Source: Acidobacteriota bacterium
GTDB lineage: Bacteria; Acidobacteriota; CAIWXX01
DNA length: 64,000 nucleotides
Direction: 5' to 3'
NCBI GenBank assembly: GCA_016191015.1
Contig: JACPPM010000200.1
Coordinates: 21,954-85,953 of the forward strand
Positions 31,002-56,343 of the stretch are shown piece by piece. The position numbers and the translations under genes are program-made. The first letter of the stretch is position 1. The number at the start of each line of letters is the position of its first letter. The notes beneath the pieces were generated by a model, which did no database searches, was not told the DNA's origin, and saw only the letters and a list, made by a program, of their open reading frames with translations.

Positions 31002-31307
31002 ATGCGACGCGATACGCACGCTGCTACCCCGCACCGCAGGACTGAGCCGCGCGACGCGGACCGCCTCGTCTCGACGGCCGAAGCCGCCGCATACCTGGGT
31101 ATCAGCGCACAACACATGCGCGCCATGCGGTCCGCCGGCACAGGGCCCGAGTACCACCGGTACTGCGCCGTCGGGACCCGTGGCCGGGCGTATTATCGGT
31201 TGAGTGCCATCGAGTCATGGCTCGCGGCCAGGCGCCACCACTCGACGGCCGACGAGGAGGCCCTGGCGGCGCCCGCCCCACCCTCAAATAACTATCCGGA
31301 GGATTGA
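31002..31307 (+). CDS. Excisionase/AlpA-like HTH DNA-binding protein
   Basis: Signature LVSTAEAAAYLGISAQHMRAMRSAG. First gene inside attL, preceded by an AT-rich region. Confidence 0.6.
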   Translation: MRRDTHAATPHRRTEPRDADRLVSTAEAAAYLGISAQHMRAMRSAGTGPEYHRYCAVGTRGRAYYRLSAIESWLAARRHHSTADEEALAAPAPPSNNYPED

Positions 31308-31308: not shown

Positions 31309-31407
31309 ATGCCGACACAGAGACACAGCGAGTACGTGCTGATCGGGGCACTCCCCGACGACCCCACCGACTACGACCACGAGACCGTGGATTGCTGGGA
31401 CCGATGA
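31309..31407 (+). CDS. Small ORF (32 aa), translationally coupled to the helicase gene
   Basis: GGAGG ribosome-binding site upstream. Its stop overlaps the next gene's start (ATGA). No homology was assessed. Confidence 0.35.
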   Translation: MPTQRHSEYVLIGALPDDPTDYDHETVDCWDR

Positions 31408-36592: not shown

Positions 36593-37117
36593 ATGAGCAC
36601 CCATGACCCGAATCCACCCCAAGGGGGGGCTGTGGTTCATCCGCGCGACAACATGTCGCCCCCATCGCCTCAGGCACTGGCTGCAGAAGAGAGGCGTTTG
36701 CGTCGATGGATCGATCAATGGTACCGAGATCGCGCGCCCGGCCGGTGCGCCCGATACGGATCCCAGATGCTGGATCCGGTGTGGCTGGAGATCGAGGCCA
36801 CGGACTGGGGCTGGTGCTCAGTGCCTCTCATCTCCGTGGCGGAGTCATGGCGTAGGCACGGCCTCACGCGGCGTCTCCTCCAGTACCTGGAGTCGTTGCG
36901 AGGGATGCGGACGATCATGGTGAGGAATGTTCACTCTGACCATCTCCGAGAGGCTCTGGCGCGCTACGGTTACACAGATCTCGGCGGCGGCACGCACTGG
37001 CGGCGAGATTTGAGGTCGCCGGCGTCTTGGCTGCGTGGTCTCGCCATGCTCCGTTCTTGGTCGCGCCAGGTGTCATCGCCAGGACTCAGGGCAGGCGATG
37101 TTGCGCGGCGTGACTGA
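36593..37117 (+). CDS. Hypothetical protein (possible GNAT-like fold)
   Basis: AAGGAG ribosome-binding site. Weak motif-A-like RRHGLTRRLLQYL. Confidence 0.35.
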   Translation: MSTHDPNPPQGGAVVHPRDNMSPPSPQALAAEERRLRRWIDQWYRDRAPGRCARYGSQMLDPVWLEIEATDWGWCSVPLISVAESWRRHGLTRRLLQYLESLRGMRTIMVRNVHSDHLREALARYGYTDLGGGTHWRRDLRSPASWLRGLAMLRSWSRQVSSPGLRAGDVARRD

Positions 37118-37182
37118 CCGCGGCCGGCGGCAGAGACGTGGGTAGTCCGGTCCGAACAACATTGCAGCAAGGAGGAGCACAG

Positions 37183-37788
37183 GTGGCGTCAGAAGAGATG
37201 AATCAATCAGCGGTTCGCTGTCCGAAATGCAACGAAGGAGAGATCGTCGAGCGCGACAAATTCTGGGGGTGCTCCCGATGGGGCCGAGACGCGGATGGTG
37301 CCGTGACGGGGTGCGACTTCAAAGTGTGGAAGGAAGTCGCACATGGAAAGATCACGGAAAAGGACCTGAGGGAACTGGTTGCGGGCGAAATAACGCGCAA
37401 GATCAAGATGCGCAACAAAGCTGGCAAGGATTTCGAGGCGCCGTTGCACCTGAACCAGGAGACGTGGCGGGTCGATTTCCTGTTTGGGGAGGATGTGAGC
37501 ACGACCAACGGCGGCCCGACGCCTGGGGCCGCGATCGGCGCTTGCCCTCAGTGCCATGAGGGGAGCGTGATCGCCTTCGGGGCCGGCTGGCAGTGCAGCC
37601 AATGCAGCTGGAAGCTGTGGCGGCGCAAGTGCGATGCGGAGCTCAGCGAGGATATGGCAAAGACCCTGATCTCCGGGGGCGTGACGCCGGTGCTCGCGAT
37701 GACGAGTCGCGAAGGAAAGAAATTCAAGGCGGCGATGTCCCTTAAAGAAGACGGATCGGTGGAGTTGCGATTCGAGGACGATCACTAG
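37183..37788 (+). CDS. Stand-alone tandem topoisomerase-type C4 zinc-ribbon protein (YrdD-like)
   Basis: Two CxxC..CxxC ribbons (CPKCNEGEIV...WGCSRW and CPQCHEGSVI...WQCSQCSW). AGGAGGA ribosome-binding site before the GTG at 37183. Confidence 0.55.
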   Translation: MASEEMNQSAVRCPKCNEGEIVERDKFWGCSRWGRDADGAVTGCDFKVWKEVAHGKITEKDLRELVAGEITRKIKMRNKAGKDFEAPLHLNQETWRVDFLFGEDVSTTNGGPTPGAAIGACPQCHEGSVIAFGAGWQCSQCSWKLWRRKCDAELSEDMAKTLISGGVTPVLAMTSREGKKFKAAMSLKEDGSVELRFEDDH

Positions 37789-37815: not shown

Positions 37816-38019
37816 ATGCTAATCCGCATCGAAGTCAATACAGCCGCCGAGGCAGACGAGGTCCTTGACGCGTTGCGTCATCGCTTCTGGGGCCGCATCC
37901 GGGAAGTCGCCCACACACCAGTGTGCCGAGATGTGTATCTGATGCCTCAAAGTGTCGAGGTGCCAGGCCGGGAGGGACGCACATGCAGAGCGGACAGGCA
38001 GGACGAATCGCAATCATGA
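37816..38019 (+). CDS. Small hypothetical protein
   Basis: 67 aa. Its stop overlaps the metzincin start (ATGA). Confidence 0.3.
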   Translation: MLIRIEVNTAAEADEVLDALRHRFWGRIREVAHTPVCRDVYLMPQSVEVPGREGRTCRADRQDESQS

Positions 38020-40646: not shown

Positions 40647-40655
40647 GAGCAAGTG

Positions 40656-43508
40656 ATGAAACGATTGGTTTTCGCATTCTGTGTTTTCGGGCTAGGGATT
40701 TCGGCGCACAGGGCAGGCGCGCAAAGCGGTACGATCGCGATCACGGGTGTGGTGCCGGATGCGAATGGCCATACCGCGACCGTGAACTACAGTTGGAGCC
40801 AGACCGGGCCGGGGTCCAACAAACTCATGACGGGCGACCTCTACGTGCGCATCCTACAGGGTGTGTCACTAGCGCCTGACATCTACAATGATGGGTTCGG
40901 CACCATGTGTACCCAAGCCGCGTCCATGACGTGCGCTGGCACAACCGCGTACTTGGTGGGCTACGGCCGCTTCGGGGTGTGTGTGAACAGCGCCAGCAGC
41001 ACAGGTTCCTTCACCATGGACGGCCTCCTCCCGGGCGTTGGCTACACAGTACAGTTGATCGGGTACCTCGAATGGACAGCAGATTGTGCGAGCCCTGTGC
41101 CCGTGGCTACGCTCTGCATCACGAGTGGTGTCAGCGCCTTGACGATGGGCGCTGGTCAGCCTCCTGTCGTCACAACGCTCGCTGCTTCCAGCGTCACTGG
41201 AACCACCGCAACGCTGAACGGAACGGTCAACCCGAACAACCTCAGCACAAGCCACTACTTCGAATGGGGCACAACTGTTGCGTATGGTAATACCACGTCT
41301 GTCGGACTCCTGTCCCCAGGCCCTCTCAACGGGGCCTGTACCACTCTAGCCACCGCCGGAGGATGGATAGCGAACGCGGTATCAGCGGGGCTGACCGGCT
41401 TGACGGGCGGGCAGACGTACCATTTCCGGGTCGTGGCCACCAACGCACAGGGCACGACCTACGGCGGCGACCAGCAGTTTGCGGCCGCCCAAGTTCCTTC
41501 TCTCACAACCAACCCTGCAACGGGCGTTGGCAGCACCACAGCCACCCTTAACGGTGTCGTCACGACCAACGGCTTAACCGCGAGCTGGTGGTACGAGTAC
41601 GGCACCGGCAGCGGTGTCTATCCCAACAGCACACCAGGCGGGACCGTGCCGGGCGGCACGCCCAGCGCGGCAGTCAGCGTGACTCTCAGTGGGCTACTGC
41701 CCAACAGCACATACTATTTCCGTCTCGCTGGTGCGAATGCGAACGGGACGGGATACGGGATCGAGCGCAGCTACACGACTGGCAGCGCCGCTCCTCCTAC
41801 GGCTATCACGGGTGCAGCATCGGGGGTGAGTACCGTGTCGGCGATACTGACAGGGACCGTCAATCCCGCAGGATCCGCAACCATGTATTGGTTCGAGTGG
41901 GGGACATCGGTCGGCTACGGCAACACGACCCCATCGCAATCCGCTGGCAATGGCACGAGCAACGCGTACGGCAGCTATCCGCTGAGCGGACTCACGAGCG
42001 GCCAAACCTATCACTATCGGGTCGTCGCGCAGAACGCATCAGGTACCGGGTACGGCTCGGATGTCGCCTTCACGACAGGCGCGACTAATCCCCCGGCCGT
42101 GACGACCGGCTCCGCATCGAGTGTGGGCACGACGTCCGCAACCCTTGGAGCCACCATCAATCCGAATAGCTCCGCCACGAGCTGGTACGTCGAGTATGGT
42201 CCGACCACCAGCTACGGGCAGACCGCCTACGGCGGCACAGTCCCGCCAGGCTCCTCGAACGTCTCAGTCAACGTTACCATAACAGGACTGACCCCAGGCA
42301 CTCTCTACCACTGGAGGCCCGTCGGCACGAACGGCATTGGCGGACGCAGCTTCGCGCCGATGGCGTATGGCACGACGTACGGCGCCGACTCGACGTTCAG
42401 CACGACGAGCGTGAGCTATCCCGGGCCTACGGTGACGACGGAAGCAGCGTCGAACGTGGGTTACACAGGCGTGGTTTGCAACGCGACCGTGAATTTCCAA
42501 GGCGACAGTGGCACCTACTGGTTCGAGCTGAGCACATCACCGGGCGGTCCATACACGATCACCTCATCCACCGGCTCCGGTGCGGGAGCGACGGACGTGT
42601 ACGTAAGCCGCGCTGTCTCCACGCTCTCCCAGGGGACGACTTACTACGCTCGCGCCGGTGCACAGAATTCGGGAGGAACTACGTACGGTGCGGATGTCTC
42701 CTTCGTCACAGACACTGCCGGCGTGGGCGTACCCATTGCGAACACGCTCGACGCCAGCAACATCACGACTACGGGTGCTGTGCTCAACGGCACGTACCAG
42801 CCGAACGGGGCGTCGTCGAGCCAGGTGTGGTTCGAATGGGGCACCAGCGCATCGAGTCTCTCAAACGCCACGAGCATCCAAAACGGAGTTGGTGGATCCA
42901 CCGAAACCAGCTACAGCCGGAGCCTCACCACTCTCACCGCGGGAGGCACCTACTACTTCAGGCTGGCGTGCAGCACGCCTACGGGAGGCACTGCCTACGG
43001 CGCCACGCTCACTTTCACCACCAGTACCACGCCGGTCACGTATCTCGAATTCAGCAACTTCAAGTGCAAGTGGAAGGATGTAGCCAACTCCAATCTGCTT
43101 GGTGGTAGCGGAAAGCGTGGTCTCGCTCGCAAGAGCCGGGCCTCGCTCACGTTCACCGGCACCGGCATCGATCTCTACTCGATGCTCGACAAGACACTCG
43201 GCAAGATGAAAATCACGATCGACGGTGCCGCGCTTCGGCATCCCGTCACAATTAGACGGCTCACCGCCGACCGTGGGCTCGTCACGGACATCATCAATCC
43301 CACGAAGCTCGGTCGGAAATCCGGGAAGGGATCTCCGCTCTCCACCACGGTGGATCTTTACACACCGGGAGCGACACAGTTCCAAGAGATTCTCTACTCG
43401 ATCTCCGGGCTATCCAGCGGACAGCACACACTGCGAGTCGACGCGGTCGCGCCCAAGGGGACGAAGCGCTACCACATTTTCGTGGACGCGGTGCGAGTGC
43501 GTGAGTGA
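40656..43508 (+). CDS. Secreted protein with about nine FN3-like repeats and a C-terminal beta-sandwich domain
   Basis: Signal peptide (MKRLVFAFCVFGLGISAHRAGAQ). Repeated ~90-aa modules (T.TL.GTVNPN...YWFEWGT...YG.TT...GQTYH[FY]RVVA.N..G). AGGAGC ribosome-binding site. Confidence 0.75.
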   Translation: MKRLVFAFCVFGLGISAHRAGAQSGTIAITGVVPDANGHTATVNYSWSQTGPGSNKLMTGDLYVRILQGVSLAPDIYNDGFGTMCTQAASMTCAGTTAYLVGYGRFGVCVNSASSTGSFTMDGLLPGVGYTVQLIGYLEWTADCASPVPVATLCITSGVSALTMGAGQPPVVTTLAASSVTGTTATLNGTVNPNNLSTSHYFEWGTTVAYGNTTSVGLLSPGPLNGACTTLATAGGWIANAVSAGLTGLTGGQTYHFRVVATNAQGTTYGGDQQFAAAQVPSLTTNPATGVGSTTATLNGVVTTNGLTASWWYEYGTGSGVYPNSTPGGTVPGGTPSAAVSVTLSGLLPNSTYYFRLAGANANGTGYGIERSYTTGSAAPPTAITGAASGVSTVSAILTGTVNPAGSATMYWFEWGTSVGYGNTTPSQSAGNGTSNAYGSYPLSGLTSGQTYHYRVVAQNASGTGYGSDVAFTTGATNPPAVTTGSASSVGTTSATLGATINPNSSATSWYVEYGPTTSYGQTAYGGTVPPGSSNVSVNVTITGLTPGTLYHWRPVGTNGIGGRSFAPMAYGTTYGADSTFSTTSVSYPGPTVTTEAASNVGYTGVVCNATVNFQGDSGTYWFELSTSPGGPYTITSSTGSGAGATDVYVSRAVSTLSQGTTYYARAGAQNSGGTTYGADVSFVTDTAGVGVPIANTLDASNITTTGAVLNGTYQPNGASSSQVWFEWGTSASSLSNATSIQNGVGGSTETSYSRSLTTLTAGGTYYFRLACSTPTGGTAYGATLTFTTSTTPVTYLEFSNFKCKWKDVANSNLLGGSGKRGLARKSRASLTFTGTGIDLYSMLDKTLGKMKITIDGAALRHPVTIRRLTADRGLVTDIINPTKLGRKSGKGSPLSTTVDLYTPGATQFQEILYSISGLSSGQHTLRVDAVAPKGTKRYHIFVDAVRVRE

Positions 43509-44061: not shown

Positions 44062-45876
44062 ATGAGTGCTGGCGTTATGCTGGAGCAGGTGTGGCCATGG
44101 ATCGCGGCGTGGCCCTTCCGCCTCGTGGCTGCCGTCGTCGCGCGCAAGCCCGAGGTCCTCGCAGTGGTGCCGCACCTGCCAGCCGTTGCGCTGGCGTGCT
44201 GGGGACTCTGGTTGTGGGCTCGTCTCACGCGCAGGCAGCTACTCCATACGTGGCCGCGCCTCTCGAATTTCCTGGGCTCGGGATGGCTCGCGCCTATCGC
44301 GACATGGTTCACTGCGCTCACTCTGATGCTCATTCGCGGCACCTGGCTCGTGCGAGTCCTGCCAGGCCACGAGGTCGGTGCAGTATCGCACGCCGGCGCC
44401 CTCATGCTCTATCCGGCCGCGGCGTTCTGCGCATGGCGGATTCTGCCGCCGCTGGCGCGCAAGGGCAACCTCGGATCGGCCGTGTGGGCCGCGGTGAGGA
44501 ATGTTCGGGTGCGGTCCGGCGCTCCCTTCCTTCTGCCGGTGCGCATACCTCTTCGGCCGTGCAGAAGGCCCCGAGCGTGGGACATGGGACCCGCTGTGCT
44601 GGCACCTGACCGCGGCACCGTCTGCCGGCACACGCTGGTCCTTGGAGGGTCCGGAGCCGGAAAGGGTGCGTCGGTGCTCGGTCACATCATACAGAGCACG
44701 CACCTGCCGCTCATCTATCAGGACGTCAAGGCGGAGTGCCCGCTCCTTGTTGACCGGTGGCAGCGCCGCGGCAAGCCGCCGATTGTGTGGGGCGCGTCGC
44801 GTCCGGGCGGCTGGCCGTCGCTCAGCTGGAATCCTCTCCAGGAGGCATACGACGACCCAGATTTCGAGGATGCGTGCGGCGGGCTGGCAGGTGCGCTGCT
44901 ACCAGTGGTCAAGGGCGAGAACGCATGGGTCACCGACACGGCCCGTCTGCTCCTCACGCACATTTTTTCGCAACGCGTGTACAGAGCCCTCAGCGAGATT
45001 CGCGACGAGCTGAAGGGGCACGGAATCGCGGCGGTTCTCACGAGAGTCGGTTCGGCGGCTGGGCTCGACGAGCAGCTCGCCGGAAAGAACGCGAAAGAGT
45101 ACGCGTCGAACGCCCTCCAGACGACCCTTGATCACTTTGGGGTCGGGTGGGCGCGCGCCGCCACGACTCTGCACAACTTCAGTCTGTCAGATGTCCTGAC
45201 CACCGACTGCTACGTGCTATCGAATGAGTCCGATGAGAAGCGGCGTCTTCCCCTGCAGGTCTTCTGGCGGATGTTGTTCCGCAGAATGCTCAAGGCGTCC
45301 GAGCTGGGAAATATGCTATTGCTGGATGAGGGGCTCGCCGCAGGCTACATCCCGGGCTTGGCAGATGCGCTGAATACGATCCGCAGCAAGGGTGGTGCGA
45401 TCGTCTTCGCGATTCAGAATAGCGGGGGACTCAAGGCCGTCTACCGGGACGAGGCGGAGGCCGTGTCGGAGGCTTTCGCCTCAAAGATTGTCCTGCTCAG
45501 CGGGCTTAATCCGGAGGACCTCCAAGCACTCACGAAGCAGATGGGCGAGTTCACAGTGGTCCGCGGACGGCCGCTGCTCCCAGTCAAAGGTGAGCAGATT
45601 GCATCCTTGCTGCCGATCGAGTACGCGAGCAAGCTCGCGCTCCTCCCGAAGCAGTGGTGGGGCGTCATTCGAATCCCGGGTGTGGTGCGGACGGGCCGGC
45701 CCATCCTGGCGCGGATGATGGCGAGTAGTTTCGCCGTCCAGGAGCCGCACCCACACCTGGCGGAGGCGATGCAGCGGGCCTATCCCGCCCGACCATTCGC
45801 AGGCACAGCTGTGAATATCGTCCCGGAGGCTACTCCGGCCGAGCCAGACTCCACACCGCAGGCATTCGGACTATAG
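44062..45876 (+). CDS. Type IV secretion coupling protein (VirD4/TraG/TrwB-like)
   Basis: N-terminal TM helices. Walker A LVLGGSGAGKGASVL and Walker B MLLLDEG. Confidence 0.7.
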   Translation: MSAGVMLEQVWPWIAAWPFRLVAAVVARKPEVLAVVPHLPAVALACWGLWLWARLTRRQLLHTWPRLSNFLGSGWLAPIATWFTALTLMLIRGTWLVRVLPGHEVGAVSHAGALMLYPAAAFCAWRILPPLARKGNLGSAVWAAVRNVRVRSGAPFLLPVRIPLRPCRRPRAWDMGPAVLAPDRGTVCRHTLVLGGSGAGKGASVLGHIIQSTHLPLIYQDVKAECPLLVDRWQRRGKPPIVWGASRPGGWPSLSWNPLQEAYDDPDFEDACGGLAGALLPVVKGENAWVTDTARLLLTHIFSQRVYRALSEIRDELKGHGIAAVLTRVGSAAGLDEQLAGKNAKEYASNALQTTLDHFGVGWARAATTLHNFSLSDVLTTDCYVLSNESDEKRRLPLQVFWRMLFRRMLKASELGNMLLLDEGLAAGYIPGLADALNTIRSKGGAIVFAIQNSGGLKAVYRDEAEAVSEAFASKIVLLSGLNPEDLQALTKQMGEFTVVRGRPLLPVKGEQIASLLPIEYASKLALLPKQWWGVIRIPGVVRTGRPILARMMASSFAVQEPHPHLAEAMQRAYPARPFAGTAVNIVPEATPAEPDSTPQAFGL

Positions 45877-45886: not shown

Positions 45887-46849
45887 ATGAGACAGAGAAT
45901 CGAAACACTGATCGTGCAATTGCGCCTTCGGGCAGGTTGGCGCGCACCGCTCGTTGTCGCTTGCGTATTGGCCGCTTGGATGTTTCTGCTGCCAACCACG
46001 GCTTATGCCCAGGAGACTATTGGCAGCAAGTTTATGGAGGACACGATGCGCAAAGCGCTCGTGCCCGTCGTCATGGCGTTCATGACCAAGGTCAGTAACT
46101 TCGTGACCCCATTGCTGGCGGGGTTGGCTACAATCTTCGTAATCTGGACCGCGATCAAGAACTTCCTCGCAGACAGGCCCTTCCAAGAGACCTTCGCAGA
46201 GATTCTGATGACACTGCTCATCGTCACGGCCCTCACGAACACGGACAACTACAGGTGGCTCTTCTGGGACATGATGTATGGTGGGCTCTACACGGAGCTT
46301 GTTGTCCCTGCCGGCGAAGGGGATACGGGCTTCCCGGCGGCTGTGCAAGAGCTGGCTCACCAGCAAGCGGAACGCTCCGCGAAGTGGAACCTCAGCACCG
46401 GCATGACGATCATCCAGCGCATCGGCGAATCCATCAACACACTCGAGACAGGAGGCGTTGCTTGGCTCATGCAAATCGGCGCACTCTTTGTCGAGCCCCT
46501 CATGACGTCCGCCACCATCTTTGCGATAATGTCGATCGCTTTCTTCGGGGCGATCGGCCAGATATTTCTCTCCATGTGGCTACTCGACTTCACGAAGGAC
46601 TATACGAAGAAGTGGTTCGGCTGCTATATGGGCGCGATATTCTCGTTGGTAGCAATCAGCTTCTTCGCGCCATTTCTGAGCGGGTGGTGGAGTGATGTTG
46701 TGGCCGAAGCGGTACAACTCGAGAACGCGAACAAGGGCATCACGGAAAAAATGCTTACTCCTGGCCTCATGAAGCAGTTCGTGTGGAGTTTCTTCGGCAT
46801 CATGGCAGCCCTCAAGGCGCCCAGTTTGGGGAAGGAGCTGTTCCGGTGA
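45887..46849 (+). CDS. Polytopic membrane protein (VirB6/TrbL-like candidate)
   Basis: GAGGAGG ribosome-binding site. At least five hydrophobic helices. This region is visibly AT-richer than the rest. Confidence 0.45.
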   Translation: MRQRIETLIVQLRLRAGWRAPLVVACVLAAWMFLLPTTAYAQETIGSKFMEDTMRKALVPVVMAFMTKVSNFVTPLLAGLATIFVIWTAIKNFLADRPFQETFAEILMTLLIVTALTNTDNYRWLFWDMMYGGLYTELVVPAGEGDTGFPAAVQELAHQQAERSAKWNLSTGMTIIQRIGESINTLETGGVAWLMQIGALFVEPLMTSATIFAIMSIAFFGAIGQIFLSMWLLDFTKDYTKKWFGCYMGAIFSLVAISFFAPFLSGWWSDVVAEAVQLENANKGITEKMLTPGLMKQFVWSFFGIMAALKAPSLGKELFR

Positions 46850-47796: not shown

Positions 47797-48093
47797 TCGC
47801 CGCCATGCCCCGGTGCGAAGACGGAGTGCCGGCAGTCACGACGAGTCCTTCGCCGTCGCTCGCCTGGGCCCGCTCTCACGCCCCGCGTCTCGGGCACGCT
47901 TCGCTCTCCGGCTCCGTTGCAGACGGGTCCCCTCCCGCCTTCGGCGGGAACCCTCCCCATCTTCACTCCGCCTCCGGCCTGAGAAGCGGGGACGCGGGCC
48001 TTTAGGGCGAGGCGACGGCGAAGGACTCATCGTGAGACAGGCGGCGGCAGACAATACACAGTAATGCGTGTATTGCCGCCAAAGCCGCACGAG

Positions 48094-48120
48094 GCGCCGG
48101 CTCAGGATCTATCGTGAGAC
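48094..48120 (+). repeat. Element-internal repeat family B, partial copy (…caggatctatcgtgagac)
   Basis: Matches the 3' part of the copies at 48967-49034 and 50277-50335. Confidence 0.55.
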
Positions 48121-48135
48121 AACCGTAAGAACTCC

Positions 48136-48948: not shown

Positions 48949-48966
48949 CCGTTGGAACTGTAGGTC

Positions 48967-49034
48967 CCCCTATCCCCCGCCCGGGGTAACGCGGAACGGA
49001 GGCTCGGGCGCCGGCGCAGGATCTATGGTGAGAC
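48967..49034 (+). repeat. Element-internal repeat family B, full copy 1
   Basis: cccctatcccccgcccggggtaacgcggaacggaggctcgggcgccggcgcaggatctatggtgagac. Confidence 0.6.
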
Positions 49035-49063
49035 GGGGGAACGGAACAGCCGGCGAATGAAGT

Positions 49064-49315
49064 TTATAGTTGGCGCTCCTTTAGGTACTGCGCAAGTGCC
49101 TCGATCACAATATCGACCATTTCGCGTCGGGTGCTCGCTGCGGCCACCTTCAGGCGATAGTGGAGCTCTTCCGGCAAATTGAACGTAGCCTTTTTCATCG
49201 CCGCTTTTCCGAATGGCGACTGCGCCTCTATACGCTGTATAGCTGTAGCCTGTATGCCTGTATGTCCAGCCTGCCTTTGTCCGGTGACTCCTGCCAATCC
49301 TACGCGCTTAGACAT
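49064..49315 (-). CDS. RHH/ParG-like partition DNA-binding protein
   Basis: C-terminal RHH (KKATFNLPEELHYRLKVAAASTRREMVDIVIEALAQYL). Lies immediately downstream of parA on the same strand. The start could instead be the internal ATG at 49198. Confidence 0.5.
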   Translation of the reverse strand: MSKRVGLAGVTGQRQAGHTGIQATAIQRIEAQSPFGKAAMKKATFNLPEELHYRLKVAAASTRREMVDIVIEALAQYLKERQL

Positions 49316-49953
49316 TTTCTCAACTCCTTTACGAGTAGTCGCAATTCCTTGGTCGCCGCTGAGTGTGGCGCAAGACCGGAAACGGTCCGCCCCGCGACAG
49401 ATGCCTCTGCTAGGGCCACCCGTTGTGCTATTTCGGCACGGCAGACAGGCAGTCCGATGCTTCTGGCAGCTTCGCGAGCCTCATCGCCGATTGCCGTGCC
49501 GACGATCCGCCGGCTGATCACGATGTAAGCACGCAACCCCGCATTGCTGCTCCGGGCGCGTGCGATCATCTCCGCCATCCCTTCGCCGCTCCACAGGTCG
49601 AACGCAGACGGCTGGATCGGAACAAGAACGAGATCCGCGACAGCCAGGGCCGACCGCGTAATGCTCTCGGCGCCCGCTGGTCCCCCAGGGGGGCAGTCAA
49701 TCAGGATCATGTCGTACTTGTGGCGGAGTTTGGGCACCTCAGCATGGAGGATTGGCGCCGGCATAGCGACGACATGGAAAGGGATTGAACCCTCCGATCG
49801 AACGCCACGCCAGCGAACAACGGATCCCTGCGGATCGGCGTCAACGAGAAGTGCCTCAAGCCCTTCTTCCCCCAGGATCCCAGCCAATCCGAGCGCGATC
49901 GTGGTCTTGCCACATCCGCCCTTCTGGTTGGCAATCACAATAACGTGACCCAT
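49300..49953 (-). CDS. parA: ParA/ParF-family partition ATPase
   Basis: Deviant Walker A NQKGGCGKTT. ParA motifs VDADPQGS and ILIDCPP. 217 aa, small plasmid-type. Confidence 0.85.
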   Translation of the reverse strand: MGHVIVIANQKGGCGKTTIALGLAGILGEEGLEALLVDADPQGSVVRWRGVRSEGSIPFHVVAMPAPILHAEVPKLRHKYDMILIDCPPGGPAGAESITRSALAVADLVLVPIQPSAFDLWSGEGMAEMIARARSSNAGLRAYIVISRRIVGTAIGDEAREAARSIGLPVCRAEIAQRVALAEASVAGRTVSGLAPHSAATKELRLLVKELRKCLSA

Positions 49954-49990: not shown

Positions 49991-50276
49991 TGTCAAGTCG
50001 CGCCGTGCGTCGCCGGCGCGAGAGAGCGACAGCGGAGTTCGGACCGCCGCTCGCCCAGAGTCCCTGGGCTCCCTCCTCAACCCCGCTGGGCGGGGACCCG
50101 ATGCCCCCTAGCCCCGTCGGGGAACCCGGACCCAGCGAGGGCGATGGACGACGAGGTGTCAGGACCTTCGCGCAGATCCACCAGGACCGTGGCTTCGAGG
50201 AGCCGCGGAATTCCGGACCTGCGCGCGGCCGGGCGGCCGTGCTACTCCAGGGGCAAGCCCCTGGACCCATGTCCCA

Positions 50277-50335
50277 CCTATCCCCCGAAGGGGGTAACGC
50301 GGACGGAGGCTCCGGCTCAGGATCTATCGTGAGAC
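50277..50335 (+). repeat. Element-internal repeat family B, full copy 2
   Basis: cctatcccccgaagggggtaacgcggacggaggctccggctcaggatctatcgtgagac. Confidence 0.6.
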
Positions 50336-50600
50336 ACGATCGATCGATCGACATAGCCCCGGCCGCGGGATCGGAAAGGAGTTGACTTTTGACCCCACAA
50401 GTGCCAACCTTCGCCTATGGGTACCCGTAGGGCAGACAGGACCGCGTTAGATCTGCGCGAAGCACTCGGCGCGTCGCAAGAGACATCGGATTTCTCCACC
50501 GCCTCGGGCCGGAAACGAATCAAGGCGAGGTCGTTGTGGAGTTCGATGGGCGGTTTTACCGCATTACGAAATTCGATTCAGCGTGAATTAGGAGGATCTC

Positions 50601-50978
50601 ATGGCTAGAATCCACGACACCAGCAAGAGCCTGCCGCGTGTGCGCGATACGAGCACGGCCCTCGCGTGTATACCAGCCAAGAAAGTGACGACGACCCTGG
50701 GCGCTAATCGTACGCCTCACTTGAGGCAGGGTGCAAAGGGGCCCATCAGCTTGCTCGCGTTAGCGGAGCTCCTGAGCCAACAGTTGGCGTCCACAGGCGG
50801 CCGACCAGGTCTCGCAAACGCAGAGCGGCGCCAAAAGATCCCTACGTTGAAGGGGGACTGGCAAAGGCTCAAGCATATCGCGTCCCAGCTGCAGCAACGA
50901 GGCGTTCCCTGCACACCGGGGCAGGTGGCGGGCATATTGCTCCACGAAGACATTAATTGGCTCGAGGCCGCGATATAG
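50601..50978 (+). CDS. Hypothetical protein
   Basis: Strong AGGAGGA ribosome-binding site. No recognizable domain. Confidence 0.4.
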   Translation: MARIHDTSKSLPRVRDTSTALACIPAKKVTTTLGANRTPHLRQGAKGPISLLALAELLSQQLASTGGRPGLANAERRQKIPTLKGDWQRLKHIASQLQQRGVPCTPGQVAGILLHEDINWLEAAI

Positions 50979-51325
50979 AGAGAGAAGCCGGAAGGACGCT
51001 CTCCGGGAAAAGCAACCTGAAGAAGAACGCCAGAGGAACTACGATCGCTAGACCGTTGACGGCGAAGCAGCGGCGGGAGGTTGCGGCGCTCGCTCAGCGA
51101 CCCGACGGCGAGATCGACTACTCCGACATTCCACCGCTCGAAGACAAGTTCTGGAGGGACGCCGTCCGGAATCCTTTTTATCGTCCGGTCAAGCGACAGC
51201 TCACCGTGCGGTTGGACGTGGATGTGCTCGTGTGGCTGCGCAGCCAGGGCAGGGGATACCAGACGAGAATCAACGCCCTGCTGCGTGAGGAGATGCTCAA
51301 GAGGATGGGCAAGAAAACAGCGTAG
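50957..51325 (+). CDS. BrnA/DUF4415-family antitoxin-like protein
   Basis: Family motif DYSDIPPLEDKFWRDAV...LDVDVL.WLRSQGRGYQTRINALLR. Start codon uncertain (possibly TTG). Confidence 0.5.
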   Translation: MARGRDIEREAGRTLSGKSNLKKNARGTTIARPLTAKQRREVAALAQRPDGEIDYSDIPPLEDKFWRDAVRNPFYRPVKRQLTVRLDVDVLVWLRSQGRGYQTRINALLREEMLKRMGKKTA

Positions 51326-51404
51326 CAAATCCCCCCAGACCCCCCTCCTAATACTAATATGCGCTGTCTCCGCAGCGCATCTATCTGATGCGGCTCAGAG
51401 TGAT

Positions 51405-51442
51405 GTTACCTGGGAGGTAACATTTGTTACCTCCCAGGTAAC
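51405..51442. other. Perfect 17-bp-stem hairpin (gttacctgggaggtaac-attt-gttacctcccaggtaac)
   Basis: Inverted repeat read directly. Lies between the brnA-like gene and brnT. Confidence 0.6.
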
Positions 51443-51480
51443 ATCCCTTCTCCTCGTGCCCGTCCTGCCATCCGGGCCAC

Positions 51481-51545
51481 GGTGAACCACTGCCCCCCCC
51501 CTGGGGGTGGAGTCGGCGGCAGAGAGCTTCCGGGATTCCTGCCGT
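51481..51545. repeat. Element-internal repeat family C, copy 1, with a C9 homopolymer
   Basis: gtgaaccactgccccccccctgggggtggag...gagagcttccgggattcctg. Related to 52225-52290, and the core recurs at 33970 and 36620. Confidence 0.6.
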
Positions 51546-51619
51546 GGGACGGTGGCGCTAAGAAGGAGCCCTCGCGCACAGCCCTGCAATTGTAGCTACA
51601 GAAGGAGTTATAATGGTTC

Positions 51620-51903
51620 GTGAGGTTCGCGTGGGATGAAACTAAGAATACGGAGAACATTCGGAACCACGGCTTCGACTTTGCCGATGTGTGGGAGCTC
51701 TTCGAAAATGCACTCCTCGTGGACCTGGATACTCGCGAGATTATGGCGAGGACCGGTGGATAGGGATCGGACTGCTCAAGAGTGTGGCGGTCGTGGCCGT
51801 CGTCGTGTTTGCCGAGAGAGGACCGGAAACCGTGCGAGTCATCTCGCTCACGAAGGCAACGAAGCATGAAAAAGAAAGATACGAAAACGCCGTCAAGGAC
51901 TGA
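51620..51903 (+). pseudogene. brnT: brnT (DUF497 RNase toxin) disrupted by a -1 frameshift
   Basis: The N-terminal part (VRFAWDETKNTENIRNHGFDF...) stops at 51748. The C-terminal part (DYGEDRWIGIGLLKSVAVVAVVVFAERGPETVRVISLTKAT) continues in the -1 frame. Confidence 0.6.
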
Positions 51904-52141
51904 CTGGAAGCGAGTCAAGGCCATGTCCGATCCTGAGATTGATTGCTCCGATGTCCCTGAGCTCGGCGAGGATTTCTTTGCGCGAGCGGTTCTCTGGCCC
52001 GGGCCCAAGAAGCAAATCACTCTACGGCTTGACCCTGACGTCTTGGATTTCTTCAAGCACCAGGGCCGTGGCTATCAACGGAACATCAACACCGTGCTGC
52101 GGCGATACGTCGAGCTCCAAAGGCAGCGACACGCCAGCTAA
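51866..52141 (+). CDS. brnA: BrnA antitoxin
   Basis: MKKKDTKTPSRTDWKRVKAMSDPEID...ITLRLDPDVLDFFKHQGRGYQRNINTVLRRYV. Overlaps the 3' end of brnT. Confidence 0.7.
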   Translation: MKKKDTKTPSRTDWKRVKAMSDPEIDCSDVPELGEDFFARAVLWPGPKKQITLRLDPDVLDFFKHQGRGYQRNINTVLRRYVELQRQRHAS

Positions 52142-52224
52142 AGCCGATTCCTCACAAACGATGGCACGCCCCAGCGTGCCATCGCCTCACCTCGTGACTT
52201 TCTCGGTGGGGCCGGAATGGATGT

Positions 52225-52290
52225 GAACCACAGCCCCCCCCTGAGGGTGGAGGGGGCTGCGGAGAGCTTCCGGGATTCCTGGAGTGGGGC
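52225..52290. repeat. Element-internal repeat family C, copy 2, with a C8 homopolymer
   Basis: gtgaaccacagccccccccctgagggtggagggggctgcggagagcttccgggattcctgg. Confidence 0.6.
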
Positions 52291-52340
52291 GGCAAAGACC
52301 AATCGTCCGGCTCGCCGCGTGAGACAGCTTGAAGACAAGG

Positions 52341-52691
52341 CTAGCGCAGTGGCAGGTACTGGACGCGCTGTGCCAGTTCGCCCGGTTCGGCGAGCACGGC
52401 CAGCAGGTGGAGATCGGCGACGAACTGCCCGATTGTCATGCGCAATTGGTGGGCATAGATCACGCCGGTGAACGGGCGTCCTGCATTCTGCCACGCGTGA
52501 GCATGCCTAAGGAAGTCCTCGTCTTGGGTCACCACCACCCTCTCGAGCTCGCAAGCTCTGGCAAGCACGGCAGCGTCGCTCTCGCCAACGTGTCCGTCCT
52601 GCTGGACACTCAAAACATCTATGCCAGCCATGCTCAGAGCCGCGGTGACCGCGGCCGGCACGTGCTCGTCCATGTAGAGCCGCAGGCCCAC
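52341..52691 (-). CDS. DUF5615-family (PIN-like) putative toxin
   Basis: About 116 aa with a conserved acidic/His core. Paired with an upstream DUF433 gene through an ATGA overlap. Confidence 0.55.
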   Translation of the reverse strand: MGLRLYMDEHVPAAVTAALSMAGIDVLSVQQDGHVGESDAAVLARACELERVVVTQDEDFLRHAHAWQNAGRPFTGVIYAHQLRMTIGQFVADLHLLAVLAEPGELAQRVQYLPLR

Positions 52692-53050
52692 TACAAGCGG
52701 CCCTCAGCCTTCATGCGAGCAAGGAATGGAGATTCGCCTTCTCGCGCGCGAAGATCCTCCACGCGTCGGACCTGGGCACCGATTTCTACATCCATCTCAG
52801 GCTTGTGATCGTAGTAGTACGAGAGCGCGGCATGAATCTGCGCCAGGCTGATCTGCCGATAGTGCTGAATGAAGATCTCCTCGGGGCTCCATCCGTGGGC
52901 GAGGTGATCGAGCGCGATCTCCACAACTTTGCAGGAGGTTCCCTCGATCGTGGCTCGTCCCTCCGCGTCGAGCCGGATATGTGGAACTGACGTGACAGCT
53001 TTGGACAACTTGCTTTCCTCCTCCCTCGAATATACTACGTGCTCTCTCAT
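52691..53050 (-). CDS. DUF433-family putative antitoxin
   Basis: DUF433-like region IRLDAEGRATIEGTSCKVVEIALDHLAHGWSPEEIFIQHYRQISLAQIHAALSYY. Confidence 0.55.
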   Translation of the reverse strand: MREHVVYSREEESKLSKAVTSVPHIRLDAEGRATIEGTSCKVVEIALDHLAHGWSPEEIFIQHYRQISLAQIHAALSYYYDHKPEMDVEIGAQVRRVEDLRAREGESPFLARMKAEGRL

Positions 53051-54204
53051 CCAGCTTTGCTGATCGGCACAATTTTCTCGGTCGTTCGTCTCTCAACGGC
53101 CTCGCGCCGTTCCTTGATATCCATCGGAGAGTAATGCAGCTCCGCAATCCGGACGTCGGTCCGCAGCACGCGTGCCGCCATAAGCAACCCAGCTTGCTGC
53201 GTGATGTCACGGCCGAAGGTTCTCCGGAGGTCGTGGATGTTAACATTCGGGATGTGTGCTGTCGTCCGGATCCAGTTCCAGTGGTTCTTCAAGTCTTGTC
53301 TCCCGCGATCCGGATCTTGACCGGGAAACACGAAAAGAGAACGCCTGGGTACTTGCCTGAGCTTCCCGATCGTATACGCCGGGAGTGGGACTTCCTGGGA
53401 TTTGCCGGCCTTTGTTTGCGGAAGTGTCCAGATTGCTCGCTCGAAGTTGATGTCATCCCACTTCGCCCTCAGTACTTCGCTCTTGCGAGCTCCCGTCGTC
53501 ACAAGCATGAGGAACGCGGTGCGTACGAAGGGTTCGGGAATTTGCTCGATCGCGATGAGGACGCGCTCGAGCTCCTCTTCAGTCAACGCCCGCTTGCGAG
53601 GGGGCGGCTCGGGGTACCGACGGACCTTTCTCGCCCGATTCTCCATGATCAAGCTGCGCCTCCATGCCTCTTGCAGGCATCCGCTCACACTGGCCAGAAA
53701 CCTGTTGGCCGCGGCGTTGTGACCTTCAGCAGCCAGCCTCGCTGCCGGCTTCTCGATGTCTTCCACGCTCACTTGGTCGAGTCTCTTCTCTCCGAATTCT
53801 GCCGATGCCTTGCGGAGATAATTACGGTCCTCTGATGGCCTTTTCTTCCGCAAAGCTATTCGCTCGAGGTACTCGGTGATCCATTCGCGCATCAGGGGTA
53901 TCGCCTGACGGCGTTGCTTATCAGCGAGAGGGTCGCCGCCCTTGATCACGCACGCGAGCTTTTCGATCGCCATCTGACGTGCGGCTTCAACCGTGAGGGG
54001 ACCGTAAAGACCGAGAGTGATTCTGCGCCTCGTCTTGCGACCGCCGTACCGCAGCACGAATGCCTTACGACCACGCGGAGCCTCCTTGCTCCCGGGATAG
54101 GCAACGACACCGAGACCGGGGATCTCGTTGTCCCAGACGTAAGCACGATCGCCCGCGTTTGTCTCGAGAGAGTCAATCAGGCGCTTAGTGAGTCGACCTT
54201 TCAT
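53047..54204 (-). CDS. int: Tyrosine-type site-specific integrase (P4-like)
   Basis: N-terminal arm-binding domain (LTKRLIDSL...AYVWDNEIPGLGVVAYPGS), a core-binding domain, and a C-terminal catalytic domain with a conserved H..R...Y region. Confidence 0.9.
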   Translation of the reverse strand: MKGRLTKRLIDSLETNAGDRAYVWDNEIPGLGVVAYPGSKEAPRGRKAFVLRYGGRKTRRRITLGLYGPLTVEAARQMAIEKLACVIKGGDPLADKQRRQAIPLMREWITEYLERIALRKKRPSEDRNYLRKASAEFGEKRLDQVSVEDIEKPAARLAAEGHNAAANRFLASVSGCLQEAWRRSLIMENRARKVRRYPEPPPRKRALTEEELERVLIAIEQIPEPFVRTAFLMLVTTGARKSEVLRAKWDDINFERAIWTLPQTKAGKSQEVPLPAYTIGKLRQVPRRSLFVFPGQDPDRGRQDLKNHWNWIRTTAHIPNVNIHDLRRTFGRDITQQAGLLMAARVLRTDVRIAELHYSPMDIKERREAVERRTTEKIVPISKAG

Positions 54205-54245
54205 CCTACTCCTCCTGTGTCAGTGCGCTGGTCAGTAGGTTGCTC

Positions 54246-54266
54246 GGGTACCACCAGGGTACCACG
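54246..54266 (+). promoter_or_regulatory. Tandem GGGTACCACC arm-type repeat, right end of element
   Basis: gggtaccacc-a-gggtaccacg, in the same orientation as the left-end copy at 30748-30768. Confidence 0.6.
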
Positions 54267-54381
54267 CACTCATAGTAACCCGCCGACACCAGAATACGCT
54301 TCACACGACTAAGTGTAACATAACTATGAATGTCGTCAACACCCAAATACGCCCGGCAACGTATAAAACGTTTACAGCCTA

Positions 54382-54430
54382 CTGACTACGAATCAGTAGG
54401 TCGGGAGTTCGAGCCTCTCCGGGCGCGCCA
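54382..54430 (+). repeat. attR: partial tRNA-Arg 3' half
   Basis: ctgactacgaatcagtaggtcgggagttcgagcctctccgggcgcgcca, with 3 mismatches to the intact tRNA. Confidence 0.85.
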
Positions 54431-54564
54431 TGTTTTCAATATTTTGCGAGAGATCGACCGGTTCGATGCTTCGGCTGGCGACCGCCGGGCAACCAGTGGG
54501 GTGGCAACGGCCACGGATGGCGCGCTTCACCAGCTCTCGCGACGCGATCTCCTCGCACACAATG

Positions 54565-54836
54565 GGTAGGTCCCGCCCCGGCAGCGGGAGACTGCGGCCC
54601 TCGCCCAGAGACCCGACAGCGACATCGACTATTCCGACATTCCCCCGCTCGAAGGCAAATTCTGGAGGACCGCCGCCCGAAATCATTTTTACCGCCCGAT
54701 CAAATGACAGCTCACCGTACGGTCGGACGCGGATGTGCACGTGTGGCCGCGCAGCCAGGATGGGGGTAACAGACCGGTATCAACGCCCTGCCGCCTGAGG
54801 AGATGCTCAAGAGCATGGGCAAGAAGACAGCATAGC
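54565..54836 (+). pseudogene. Decayed brnA-like (DUF4415) antitoxin copy
   Basis: About 85% nucleotide identity to 51040-51325. Contains an in-frame TGA and an indel. Lies outside attR. Confidence 0.6.
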
Positions 54837-54890
54837 GAGGACTCGAAATCCCCCCACAGCCCCCGTTGGGGTCGAGTCCGTCGCGCGCGT

Positions 54891-55526
54891 CTATGATCGT
54901 GCGGCCTGTGCCACCAATTGATCGAATCTGGCGATCAATCTCTTCGGAGCGTGCTTGAGCAAGTAGTCACGAACGCGCTGCGCGTCGATCCCTACGAGGA
55001 TAAGCTGCGACACATCCCGGTGATCATCCGGCCGGGGCGATTTGAGTTTCAGATAGACCACAACCTCAACGGGGGCCACCGCGATGCCCTCGCTACTGGG
55101 CGCGCTGGCGAACGCTTCCGCGAGGTGCTCTTCGCCCGGTCCGATCGAGAGATAGTCGATCGGCACGTCACCGACCATGAGGGGCACCTCCGGGTGCATC
55201 GTCACGACGCCGCCCTCGTGCTTGATGAATGCTTCCTCGCCCACAAGGTAGTCGACGTCTTTCGTCGTCCGGGGGTGACCGTAAGCTCCAACCGCCATCC
55301 CCCCGACGAGAATGTGTCGCACCCCGGCCTTCTTGAGCAGCTCGTTGGAAGTTCTGGCAGCGTTGACTATGCGCGGCGCGACCAGGTCGAAGACTCGGTT
55401 GAGGTCAACCTCGGCATCCTCGGTTGGCGGATTGATCTGGATCCGAGCAGAAGGGCCAGACGCGTCGGTATCGTCGGGGGGCTCTCCGCCGGGATCTTGC
55501 GGAGCTCCGAATCGTATGCTGGGCAT
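54891..55526 (-). CDS. Hypothetical nucleotidyltransferase-fold protein
   Basis: GG.A...G..R.T.D.D-like motif (LVGGMAVGAYGHPRTTKDVDYLV). Confidence 0.4.
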   Translation of the reverse strand: MPSIRFGAPQDPGGEPPDDTDASGPSARIQINPPTEDAEVDLNRVFDLVAPRIVNAARTSNELLKKAGVRHILVGGMAVGAYGHPRTTKDVDYLVGEEAFIKHEGGVVTMHPEVPLMVGDVPIDYLSIGPGEEHLAEAFASAPSSEGIAVAPVEVVVYLKLKSPRPDDHRDVSQLILVGIDAQRVRDYLLKHAPKRLIARFDQLVAQAARS

Positions 55527-55566
55527 GCTCTCACTTTACCACCAATCCAGCTCGCTGATCGGCGCG

Positions 55567-55757
55567 ATCTTCACTGTCGTGCGTTTCTCTGCCGCCTTGG
55601 GCGGTCCTCTGGCCTGGCCCAAAGAAGCAGATCACCTTGCGACTTGACCCCGACGTCTTGAAGTTCTTCGAGCGCCGGGGCCGTGGCTATCAACGGAACA
55701 TCAATACAGTGCTCAGGCGGTACGTCGAGCTCCAAGAGCACCGATGCGCCGGCTGAG
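55567..55757 (+). pseudogene. 5'-truncated brnA remnant
   Basis: About 88% identical to the 3' part of brnA at 51960-52141. Encodes ...PKKQITLRLDPDVLKFFERRGRGYQRNINTVLRRYVELQE. Confidence 0.6.
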
Positions 55758-55773
55758 ACGGCGCGCCCTGGCT

Positions 55774-56343
55774 TCAAACCTGTGCAATTCCAGGATGCTC
55801 CCGCGACAGAAAATTCAAGCCCGCGTACACCTTCAGGTCGATCAGGGCGCCGTCGCGCCGTTTCTGATCGAGCCACTCCGGGATCCCGGCCAGCGGAACC
55901 GCGTGAACGGCGATGTCCTCGTGCTGATCGCCGCCGCCCTCGCCGGACCTGACCAGGCCGCTCGCTCGAAAGACCGCAATCACCTCACTCGAAACCCCCG
56001 CCGAGACGACACCTTCCGTCAACAGGGTCAACGACCGCGCCTGGTAGCCCGTCTCTTCGAACAACTCCCGCGCGGCTGCCGCCGCCAGGTCCTCCTGGCC
56101 GCCGGGGTGTTGATCACCAGCCAGACCGGCCGGGAGCTCGACGACCCGCTTCTGAACCGGCGGGCGGTACTGTTCGACCAGGATTAGCTTGTTGTCATCG
56201 GTGACCGCGATGATACCGACAATGCCGCAGATCTTCTGTCGTTCGACGTACTCCCAGGCGCCTCTGCGGACAAACCGCAGGTGCTTGCCCTCGGCGATGA
56301 GGATTTTTTCCCTGGAATCCAGATGACGCGGGGTGTGCCTCAC
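55774..56343 (-). CDS. NUDIX hydrolase (ADP-ribose pyrophosphatase-like)
   Basis: Nudix box GLAGDQHPGGQEDLAAAAARELFEETGY. GTG start at 56343 preceded by GGAGG. Longer ORF extensions were rejected. Confidence 0.8.
   Translation of the reverse strand: MRHTPRHLDSREKILIAEGKHLRFVRRGAWEYVERQKICGIVGIIAVTDDNKLILVEQYRPPVQKRVVELPAGLAGDQHPGGQEDLAAAAARELFEETGYQARSLTLLTEGVVSAGVSSEVIAVFRASGLVRSGEGGGDQHEDIAVHAVPLAGIPEWLDQKRRDGALIDLKVYAGLNFLSREHPGIAQV

Follow-up and report, generated by a model that had tools for sequence, protein, structure and literature searches.

What could be the role of a short repeat that carries a long run of G or C and occurs four times within one integrated element of an Acidobacteriota bacterium? 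The repeats lie in a stretch of 64,000 nucleotides (contig JACPPM010000200.1 of assembly GCA_016191015.1, positions 21,954 to 85,953), which is called the window throughout and whose proteins match the NCBI entries HYX75_151xx of an Acidobacteria metagenome-assembled genome (MAG). An initial annotation had offered three possibilities, namely binding sites for an element-encoded factor, recombination sites or phase-variable switches. The first of these is favoured by our analysis, as the motif co-occurs with RepB genes in unrelated hosts, occupies both strands and has an architecture similar to that of the single-strand initiation (ssi) sites of IncQ plasmids. From the comparisons outlined below we consider it rather probable that the repeats are ssi-type, strand-specific priming sites for the RepB primase of the element itself; hairpin formation, binding of RepB, the start point of the primer and the use of the sites in replication or transfer are what we infer from these comparisons.

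A search of the window for the core of the repeat with up to three mismatches returned 33980-34001 and 36619-36640 on the plus strand as well as 51482-51503 and 52223-52244 on the minus strand, confirming the four annotated copies, two in each orientation. By chance 0.01 matches would be expected (dinucleotide-preserving shuffles), and four matches were reached in 0 of 100 shuffles. The copies and one doubtful relic are listed here by coordinates, strand and context.

33945-34001, plus strand: copy 1 (core 33969-34001, 5' extension from about 33945), CCGACTCCACCCCCA-G7-CTGTGGTTCAC, in the linker-coding part of repB at about amino acids 186-196 (PTPPPGGAVVH) according to the RepB alignment
36607-36640, plus strand: copy 2, CCCGAATCCACCCCAA-G7-CTGTGGTTCAT, at codons 5-16 of the open reading frame (ORF) 36593-37117, right after the 449-aa gene downstream of the NikA-like gene
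51482-51541, minus strand: copy 3, whose tract reads C9 on the plus strand (51493-51501), in the intergenic DNA that separates the BrnA-1 stop (51325) from the brnT promoter region
52223-52282, minus strand: copy 4, with a C8 tract at 52234-52241 on the plus strand, flanked by brnA-2 (stop 52141) and the PIN-like DUF5615 gene (52341-52691, minus strand), two genes with convergent ends
33390-33413, minus strand: possible degenerate copy, GGCCCAGAGGGCGCGAGGTCATCC, directly 5' of the repB ATG, of low confidence

The four copies give the consensus CCACCC..A-G(7-9)-CWGTGGTTCA (n = 4), and all of them fall within the integrated element (30.7-54.4 kb), with none in the approximately 40 kb of flanking chromosome in the window. 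Copies 1 and 2 lie in their ORFs in the same frame, both encoding ..PP.GGAVVH. The longer repeat that had been ascribed to the last two copies is real, extending over 59 nt at 86% identity (51494-51552 and 52234-52292), but it is not limited to them: copy 1 shares most of the 5' extension (26 nt at 96% identity to copy 3, plus part of the further 5' extension in the alignment). Sequence shared between copies amounts to 30-60 nt only, and the flanks are unrelated. The homopolymers (G7, G7, C9 and C8) span 7-9 nt, none of them reaching the upper value of 10 given before, and such runs are not over-represented in the window, where 6 runs of at least 7 G or C were counted versus ~10.6 expected, and 2 of at least 8 versus ~2.8 (first-order Markov model). 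The non-random feature of this DNA is the repeated motif of about 30-60 nt, not the homopolymers. Furthermore, the concern that the motif might be a generic GC-rich repeat, widespread among genomes, was set aside with respect to the shuffling result and to a scan of 596 Gb of representative genomes, which gave 2 matches.

Outside the window the motif was present at or in repB in all nine foreign RepB-encoding loci of this RepB lineage that were retrieved (given here by our own L numbers). Loci L025, L026, L027, L028, L008, L015 and L019 carry one minus-strand copy each, located 10-25 nt 5' of the repB ATG. Three of these (L008, L015 and L019) originate from a metagenome scan with a relaxed DNA pattern alone, which was blind to RepB; among its 20 loci the 3 with family-like flanks all encode RepB beside the motif, the other 17 being unrelated CCACC/GGTGG hairpins. 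As a negative control a looser pattern was applied to viral contigs, and RepB was found at 0 of 120 loci. A hidden Markov model (HMM) built from the seven foreign repB-upstream copies returned the four window copies as its best matches (E values of 1.6e-4, 1.9e-4, 1.1e-3 and 1.2e-2), the next match having an E value of 1.8. The family layout from 5' to 3' comprises a CT-rich tail, 3-7 C in a row, 6-10 G in a row, one C with 0-3 further bases, and GTGG(T)TCA. All 15 family members possess the CT/C-rich arm, the G tract and C-N(0-3)-GTG, with weak hairpin predictions and a folding test of low power. The neighbouring genes differ from locus to locus (RepA and RepC in the window, a DUF5906 helicase and MobA in L023, IS110 in L025, L026, L028 and L008, IS21-type genes in L027), and repB is the sole gene common to all RepB loci with the motif. 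The window repeats thus belong to a motif family whose constant companion is the gene of a RepB-type primase.

Two copies were identified in L023, the contig of the RepB homolog P0003 from a Candidatus Thiodiazotropha MAG. The plus-strand copy GGGGGGCGCTGTGGTTCAT (3076-3094) sits at the same spot in the RepB linker as copy 1, and the minus-strand copy G10-CTGTGGTTCAC (2301-2321) is intergenic, 5' of repB, with short direct repeats and an AT-rich stretch as neighbours. Among 16 aligned homologs the linker shows no conservation except in P0003, where GGAVVH appears at the same position; the window RepB and P0003 are 40% identical and belong to different phyla. Copy 1 and the plus-strand copy of L023, both encoding GGAVVH, agree in 16 of 18 bases. 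As these bases are kept between proteins of 40% identity whose linker is otherwise unconserved, the alignment indicates that selection acts on the DNA itself at the linker copies.

With respect to its context the motif is found on the sense strand within repB (copy 1 and the plus-strand copy of L023), antisense to repB leaders, at the start of an ORFan (copy 2, whose ORF 36593-37117 had no homolog besides itself in the homolog search) and between convergent gene ends (copy 4). Since no one RNA or promoter role suits all four contexts, this distribution fits a strand-specific site at the DNA level that is read on single-stranded DNA, and not an RNA or promoter element. The sequence at 33390-33413 on the minus strand aligns with the intact repB-upstream copies of other loci, is devoid of the CT/C arm and carries GAGG instead of GTGG; it was undetected by nhmmer with the motif HMMs and, to judge from the alignment, may be a decayed copy. 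In L002, another Acidobacteriota MAG, a clean copy CTCCACCCACAGGGGGGCCTGTGGTTCAC was observed at 2938-2963 on the minus strand, ~85 nt downstream of a tRNA-Thr gene. This copy may be part of a related integrated element or of what is left of one; in a comparison of L002 with the copy-3 region the core alone aligned, without extended similarity.

The proposed reader of these sites, RepB (268 aa), consists of a catalytic domain, a P/G-rich linker and a C-terminal helical domain and is a primase of the RepB' family within the archaeo-eukaryotic primases (AEP). One search yielded 287 homologs, most of which cover 97-99% of its length at ~40% identity, and the ORF is therefore real, linker included. 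The RepB family profile matches RSF1010 RepB' (PDB 3H25/3H20) with an E value of 3.5e-25, and the catalytic DD, D and R positions line up, showing no variation in the RepB alignment. The replication genes and the presumed origin of the element are the following.

31392-32294, plus strand: RepA, AAA_25 helicase (E 2.9e-30)
32299-33423 (ORF), plus strand: RepC, IncQ-type initiator (Pfam RepC, E 1.4e-52)
33204-33271, plus strand: three tandem 22-bp repeats (CGTTGGGGTGTACCGGCATCGA), presumed oriV iterons, directly after the RepC domain
33414-34220, plus strand: RepB primase (Pfam RepB_primase, E 1.2e-14)

RepC homologs have ~290 aa and end before the 22-bp repeats, the annotated repC ORF having 365-374 aa; the repeats are probably iterons, and as annotated the repC ORF is probably too long or continues through its own origin. 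In two related replicons, L033 and L034, three repeats of 21-22 bp occupy the same place after repC, and the RepC of L033 is 32% identical to that of the window. L033 is a contig of 6864 nt with a terminal overlap of 30 nt and hence a circular IncQ-like plasmid of 6834 bp, which carries repA, repC, three 22-bp iterons (1327-1392), a NikA-like gene and a relaxase-RepB fusion, as well as an ssi-like inverted pair TCTTTTTTCCGGCGCGCGCG..GGCCGGGGTGTGT at 1542-1584 (minus strand) and 6311-6348 (plus strand), 4.7 kb apart.

RepB' has been described to start priming exclusively at ssiA and ssiB, two signals of 40 nt that lie on complementary strands of oriV. In each of them the catalytic domain binds a 6-nt 5' tail, which is followed by a hairpin (nt 7-27) and by a GTG (nt 31-33), the primer starting at T32 (PMC8567376). 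The ssiA sequence, CCTTTC / CCCCTACCC-GAA-GGGTGGGGG / CGC-GTG-TGCAGCC, gave matches of 100% identity in IncQ plasmids, and the oriV of one IncQ plasmid showed the order iterons, AT-rich region, ssiB (minus), ssiA (plus). In each of three IncQ plasmids the pattern of four or more G, 0-4 bases and GTG[GT][TG][TC] detected only the two known or evident ssi sites.

The window resembles this system in several respects. The element that holds the sites also carries iterons and encodes RepA, RepC and a primase of the RepB' family whose catalytic residues are intact; sites are located on both strands (two plus and two minus in the window, an inverted pair in L023); and the motif combines a 5' tail rich in pyrimidines with a presumed hairpin of C arm and G arm and with a 3' tail in which GTG follows the G arm after a few bases. 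L023 is furthermore similar to RSF1010 in having the minus-strand site first and the plus-strand site second, with neighbouring repeats and an AT-rich stretch. The CT-rich tail of L028 and L008 is CCTTTC, as in ssiA. For comparison with L026 and L027 the ssiA core can also be written CCTTTCCCCCTACCC-GAA-GGGTGGGGG-CGCGTGTG, and the motifs of L026 (CCTCTCTCCCCC-GGA-GGGGGGG-CGTGG), L027 (G10-CGCGTGG) and L028 (CCTTTCTCTACCCCC-G7-CGTGG) look like intermediate forms between the window motif and ssiA. In contrast to ssiA and ssiB, the 3' tail of the window family is GTGGTTCA and not GTGTG(C/T)AGCC, and the presumed hairpin arms in the window come close to pure homopolymers and leave hardly any loop. 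The copies number four and are scattered at distances of 0.7-5.4 kb from the iterons, where ssiA and ssiB form a single adjacent pair; two copies are embedded in ORFs, one in the linker of repB itself; and the host is an integrated element in Acidobacteria, not a small proteobacterial plasmid. By this comparison the repeats would work like ssiA and ssiB and are at most candidate members of the IncQ ssi class in the strict sense.

The element that hosts the repeats is bounded by a duplication of the 3' end of a tRNA gene and measures ~23.7 kb. Besides the replication genes, it contains the features below.

30625-30701, plus strand: tRNA-Arg(ACG) gene, whose 3' 51 nt (30652-30702) form attL
31002-31307, plus strand: helix-turn-helix protein
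34688-35221, plus strand: NikA-like protein
35221-36570, plus strand: 449-aa protein of unassigned family
37138-37788, plus strand: protein with topoisomerase C-terminal repeats
37923-43508, plus strand: two large secreted-type proteins
44062-45876, plus strand: coupling protein
45887-46849, plus strand: TrbL/VirB6
49300-49953, minus strand: ParA
50957-51325, plus strand: BrnA-1, a second BrnA gene, just before copy 3
about 51620-51903, plus strand: frameshifted brnT
51866-52141, plus strand: brnA-2
52341-53050, minus strand: DUF5615/PIN-like and DUF433 pair
53047-54204, minus strand: tyrosine integrase gene, which adjoins attR and targets the tRNA
54381-54431, plus strand: attR, a 51-nt copy of the tRNA 3' end, 94% identical

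Independent Logan contigs break inside both 51-nt att repeats. On account of its gene content (RepA, RepC, iterons, RepB and transfer genes) the element is probably integrative and mobilisable with an IncQ-like replicon.

For such an element a replication cycle can be proposed. Excision from the tRNA-Arg gene would yield a circle of ~23.7 kb, on which RepC would act at the three 22-bp iterons (33204-33271) and the RepA helicase would unwind the DNA outward. Once single-stranded, the motif would present its pyrimidine-rich 5' tail, a small hairpin of C arm and G tract, and the 3' tail C-N-GTGGTTCA; the G/C homopolymers would represent the hairpin arms, with a loosely constrained length of 6-10 across the family. 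RepB would then dock on tail and hairpin and start the primer from the T of GTG, a few bases 3' of the G tract, comparable to the use of T32 of ssiA by RepB'. Copies 1 and 2 (plus) would prime leftward and copies 3 and 4 (minus) rightward synthesis, and both strands would then be copied continuously without host DnaG. After conjugative transfer, the same sites could also prime the complementary strand in the recipient.

Several results weigh against a priming role. The predicted single-stranded DNA hairpins are weak and vary by copy: only copy 4 (-14.8 kcal/mol, z -3.2) clearly exceeded its shuffles, and copies 1-3 were no better than shuffled controls, in a test of low power that likewise failed to separate the genuine ssiA from shuffles. 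With nhmmer the HMM of the new family ranked the true ssiA near the top in IncQ plasmids at non-significant E values of 0.6-1, and the IncQ ssi HMM gave no match in the window. An adjacent pair in oriV is missing; there are four copies and not two, 0.7 and 3.4 kb from the iterons on one side and, in the circular form, 4.7 and 5.4 kb from them on the opposite side. Dispersed sites do have a precedent, as the ssi-like pair of L033 is 4.7 kb apart. Neither the iterons nor repB have an intact minus-strand copy beside them, only the doubtful relic at 33390-33413, and no RepB gene was found in the 8 kb retrieved around the L002 copy. Finally, in most foreign loci the sole copy overlaps the ribosome-binding region of repB and could equally be a leader or operator.

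This last point leads to the rival which survives best, although we regard it as unlikely: a duplex operator or leader, which would act as the repB leader elsewhere and here would be bound at all four copies by a regulator of the element that coordinates its operons, comparable to KorB-type control in IncP plasmids. In the seven foreign loci mentioned above, the CT-rich tail of the upstream copy complements the purine-rich ribosome-binding site, and in the window copy 2 overlaps an ORF start and copy 3 lies ~90 nt 5' of the promoter-like TATAAT of brnT. However, copy 1 and the plus-strand copy of L023 are placed mid-repB on the coding strand and run opposite to the leader copies, and at copy 4, where two gene ends converge, there is nothing to regulate. 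Moreover, the motif is asymmetric and not palindromic, and no candidate regulator co-varies with it, repB alone being common to all loci.

Slightly less probable still is a reading as inert relics, in which short pieces of the region upstream of an ancestral repB, or of its linker, were scattered in the element through duplication and as related elements recombined, copies 3 and 4 being duplicated together with toxin-antitoxin modules. The 59 nt shared by copies 3 and 4, each of which follows a BrnA gene, would agree with this, and BrnA paralogs plus a variant motif beyond attR suggest repeated accretion of related elements. Nevertheless, only the motif of ~30-60 nt is common to the copies, and a search beside copies 2-4 revealed no RepB remnants. 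The core is also better conserved than its surroundings across phyla, and two copies are kept in frame within ORFs.

Recombination or cassette-junction sites appear highly improbable. Such sites would mediate gain and loss of the brnTA module between the direct copies 3 and 4 or inversion between copies 1/2 and copies 3/4; the bracketing of the toxin-antitoxin module, the presence of both orientations and the position of several RepB loci beside IS110-family or tyrosine recombinase genes speak for them. The bracketing itself had been annotated correctly, except that the brnT of the supposed brnT/brnA pair is split over two frames. However, the sole recombinase of the element is the tRNA-targeting integrase, with apparent arm-type repeats of a different kind (GGGTACCAC) and a 51-nt att core, and inversion of copy 1 against copies 3/4 would split repB. 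Logan assemblies of two runs covering parts of the element (100% identical to the window where covered; 38334-43046 uncovered) contain no rearranged contig, and the motif tracks repB and not a given recombinase (L023 and L027 are without IS110). A role as arm-type or att sites of the integrase itself is contradicted by position, the copies being 2-6 kb from the att repeats and not clustered at the element ends.

Equally improbable is phase variation, in which tract slippage would switch RepB (copy 1) or ORF 36593 (copy 2) on and off or tune promoters. Runs of 7-9 are slippage-prone, a change of one base in the tracts of copies 1 and 2 would cause a frameshift, and the tracts range from 6 to 10 among copies and loci; in this, and in having two tracts inside ORFs, the repeats recall the contingency loci of Neisseria, Haemophilus and Bordetella. 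At the consensus level, however, the tracts have the same length in the MAG and in the Logan assemblies of SRR12113390 (four copies) and SRR12113401 (copies 1 and 2). Two of the four tracts are non-coding, between gene ends that include convergent ones, homopolymers are not enriched in the window, and the unit includes a conserved non-repetitive flank of ~10 bases (CWGTGGTTCA) that would be superfluous for a slippage switch. The motif is also tied to a primase, unlike contingency tracts with their surface or restriction genes. The phase-variation reading of the G/C tracts, tempting but unsupported, is thereby removed.

Further candidates were rejected as well. A known RNA family was not recognised, as Rfam at the gathering threshold reported tRNA only and matches in 51200-52400 at E values up to 5 were noise. 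A transcription terminator is contradicted by the lack of a T run and by the two copies within ORFs, and a miniature inverted-repeat transposable element or insertion sequence by the absence of terminal inverted repeats and target duplications as well as by the short shared sequence with unrelated flanks. A likeness to the motif at 49664-49693 is coding sequence of ParA ('DCPPGG') and a chance match.

If the repeats are priming sites of RepB, their relation to other strand-initiation signals deserves comparison. Strand-specific hairpins that start complementary strands on single-stranded plasmid DNA are known as G4-type and phiX-type ssi or primosome assembly sites, for instance on ColE1 and F, and recruit host DnaG or PriA-dependent primosomes; in the window, by contrast, the likely reader is the element's own RepB-type primase. 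Single-strand origins (sso) are larger folded structures which are read by host RNA polymerase and accompany relaxase-driven rolling-circle replication. The sso of ICEBs1 (PMC4595007) and of rolling-circle plasmids resembles the window sites as a cis site on an integrative element that would permit complementary-strand synthesis after excision or transfer. It differs from them in that the partner in the window would be an element-encoded AEP primase in an iteron/RepC replicon of theta-like or strand-displacement type.

A number of further observations concern the element and its surroundings. The cargo region (37923-43508) encodes two proteins of ~900-950 aa, one with BACON, reprolysin-like metallopeptidase and TIG domains, the other Fn3/PhoD-like, and NCBIfam gave no match for the unassigned ORFs of the element. 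Although a coupling protein and TrbL/VirB6 are present, no VirB4-type ATPase was seen in the element, and the transfer apparatus is incomplete or unconventional. The two frames of brnT correspond to Pfam BrnT positions 1-35 and 35-77, with a base apparently missing near 51740; the same sequence is present in the Logan assembly of SRR12113390, probably the same read set as that of the MAG. The gene is either a pseudogene or a shared assembly error, and the toxin is probably inactivated with brnA intact.

Outside attR, at 54581-54855 and 55601-55754, there are paralogs (80-84% identical) of BrnA-1 and of the C-terminus of BrnA-2 in the same order as inside, which suggests that a second element, now decayed, had integrated in tandem at this tRNA. 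When 51000-52400 was aligned with 54510-56000 to see whether copies 3 and 4 are insertions, the BrnA genes alone aligned. Variant G-tract motifs follow right after the stops of BrnA-1 (51330-51350, minus strand, GGGGGGTCTGGGGGGATTTG) and of the outside paralog (54854-54878, minus strand, GGGGGCTGTGGGGGGATTTCG), and a block in L002 (TATTAGTATGAGTGGGGGGTTTGG), ~90 nt from the motif copy there, resembles them. Direct repeats GGGTACCACC-N-GGGTACCAC occur near both att ends (30748-30768 and ~54241-54263, GGGTACCAC twice per end) and are, by their sequence and position, likely arm-type sites of the integrase; L002 has a comparable CCTGGGTACCAC near its tRNA-Thr gene. Between the BrnA-1 stop and copy 3, at 51399-51448, lies what looks like a perfect palindrome of 24 nt, with a hairpin in either arm (GTTACCTGGGAGGTAAC); in Rfam it produced spurious microRNA-model matches only. 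A second repeat family consists of a hairpin-like CC.CCTATCCCCCG..GGGGTAACGCGGA followed by GGC.CCGGC.CAGGATCTAT.GTGAGAC, with composite copies at 48966-49035 and 50274-50336, flanking the parA region, and second-half copies at 48009-48039 and 48091-48121, 5' of a small zinc-ribbon ORF. These repeats may serve as operators or promoters or be centromere-like.

In four independent metagenome loci repB was found directly 3' of an IS110-family transposase gene, with the G-tract motif between both (L025 4913-6816, L026 278-2252, L028 4849-6864 and L008 36-1101). Since the transposases are 33-51% and the RepBs 54-60% identical to each other, the pairing looks old and not like one recent insertion. 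A 2018 survey of AEP primases, in which no mention of the IS110-RepB pairing was found, lists only 11 members of the RepB' family, mostly from Proteobacteria (PMC5862659). New is a motif that is distinct and readily recognised and that accompanies a much larger RepB lineage (287 homologs, found in Acidobacteria, in Gammaproteobacteria and in metagenomes of marine and soil origin).

A more far-reaching idea, which we put forward as doubtful yet conceivable, is that RepB and its G-tract hairpin constitute a portable module of a primase with its own start site, captured by very different mobile elements: the IncQ-like element in Acidobacteria, a helicase/MobA replicon in Thiodiazotropha and a long-standing pairing with IS110-family transposases. 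The start site would even be writable into the linker-coding DNA of the primase itself and kept there across phyla. If this holds true, there would be a large unrecognised class of integrative or transposable elements with primase-dependent, DnaG-independent strand initiation, and the IS110-linked RepB genes would hint that the life cycle of those elements includes a replicative or single-strand step.

Should the repeats be the priming signal of RepB as we propose, sequence-specific priming by AEP primases would extend well past the IncQ plasmids, and a second, divergent pair of primase and site would be available for studying how these enzymes read DNA. It would follow that such sites may lie far apart and within coding sequence, even that of the primase itself, and the motif would serve as a simple marker of origins and complementary-strand starts in integrative elements of poorly studied phyla.

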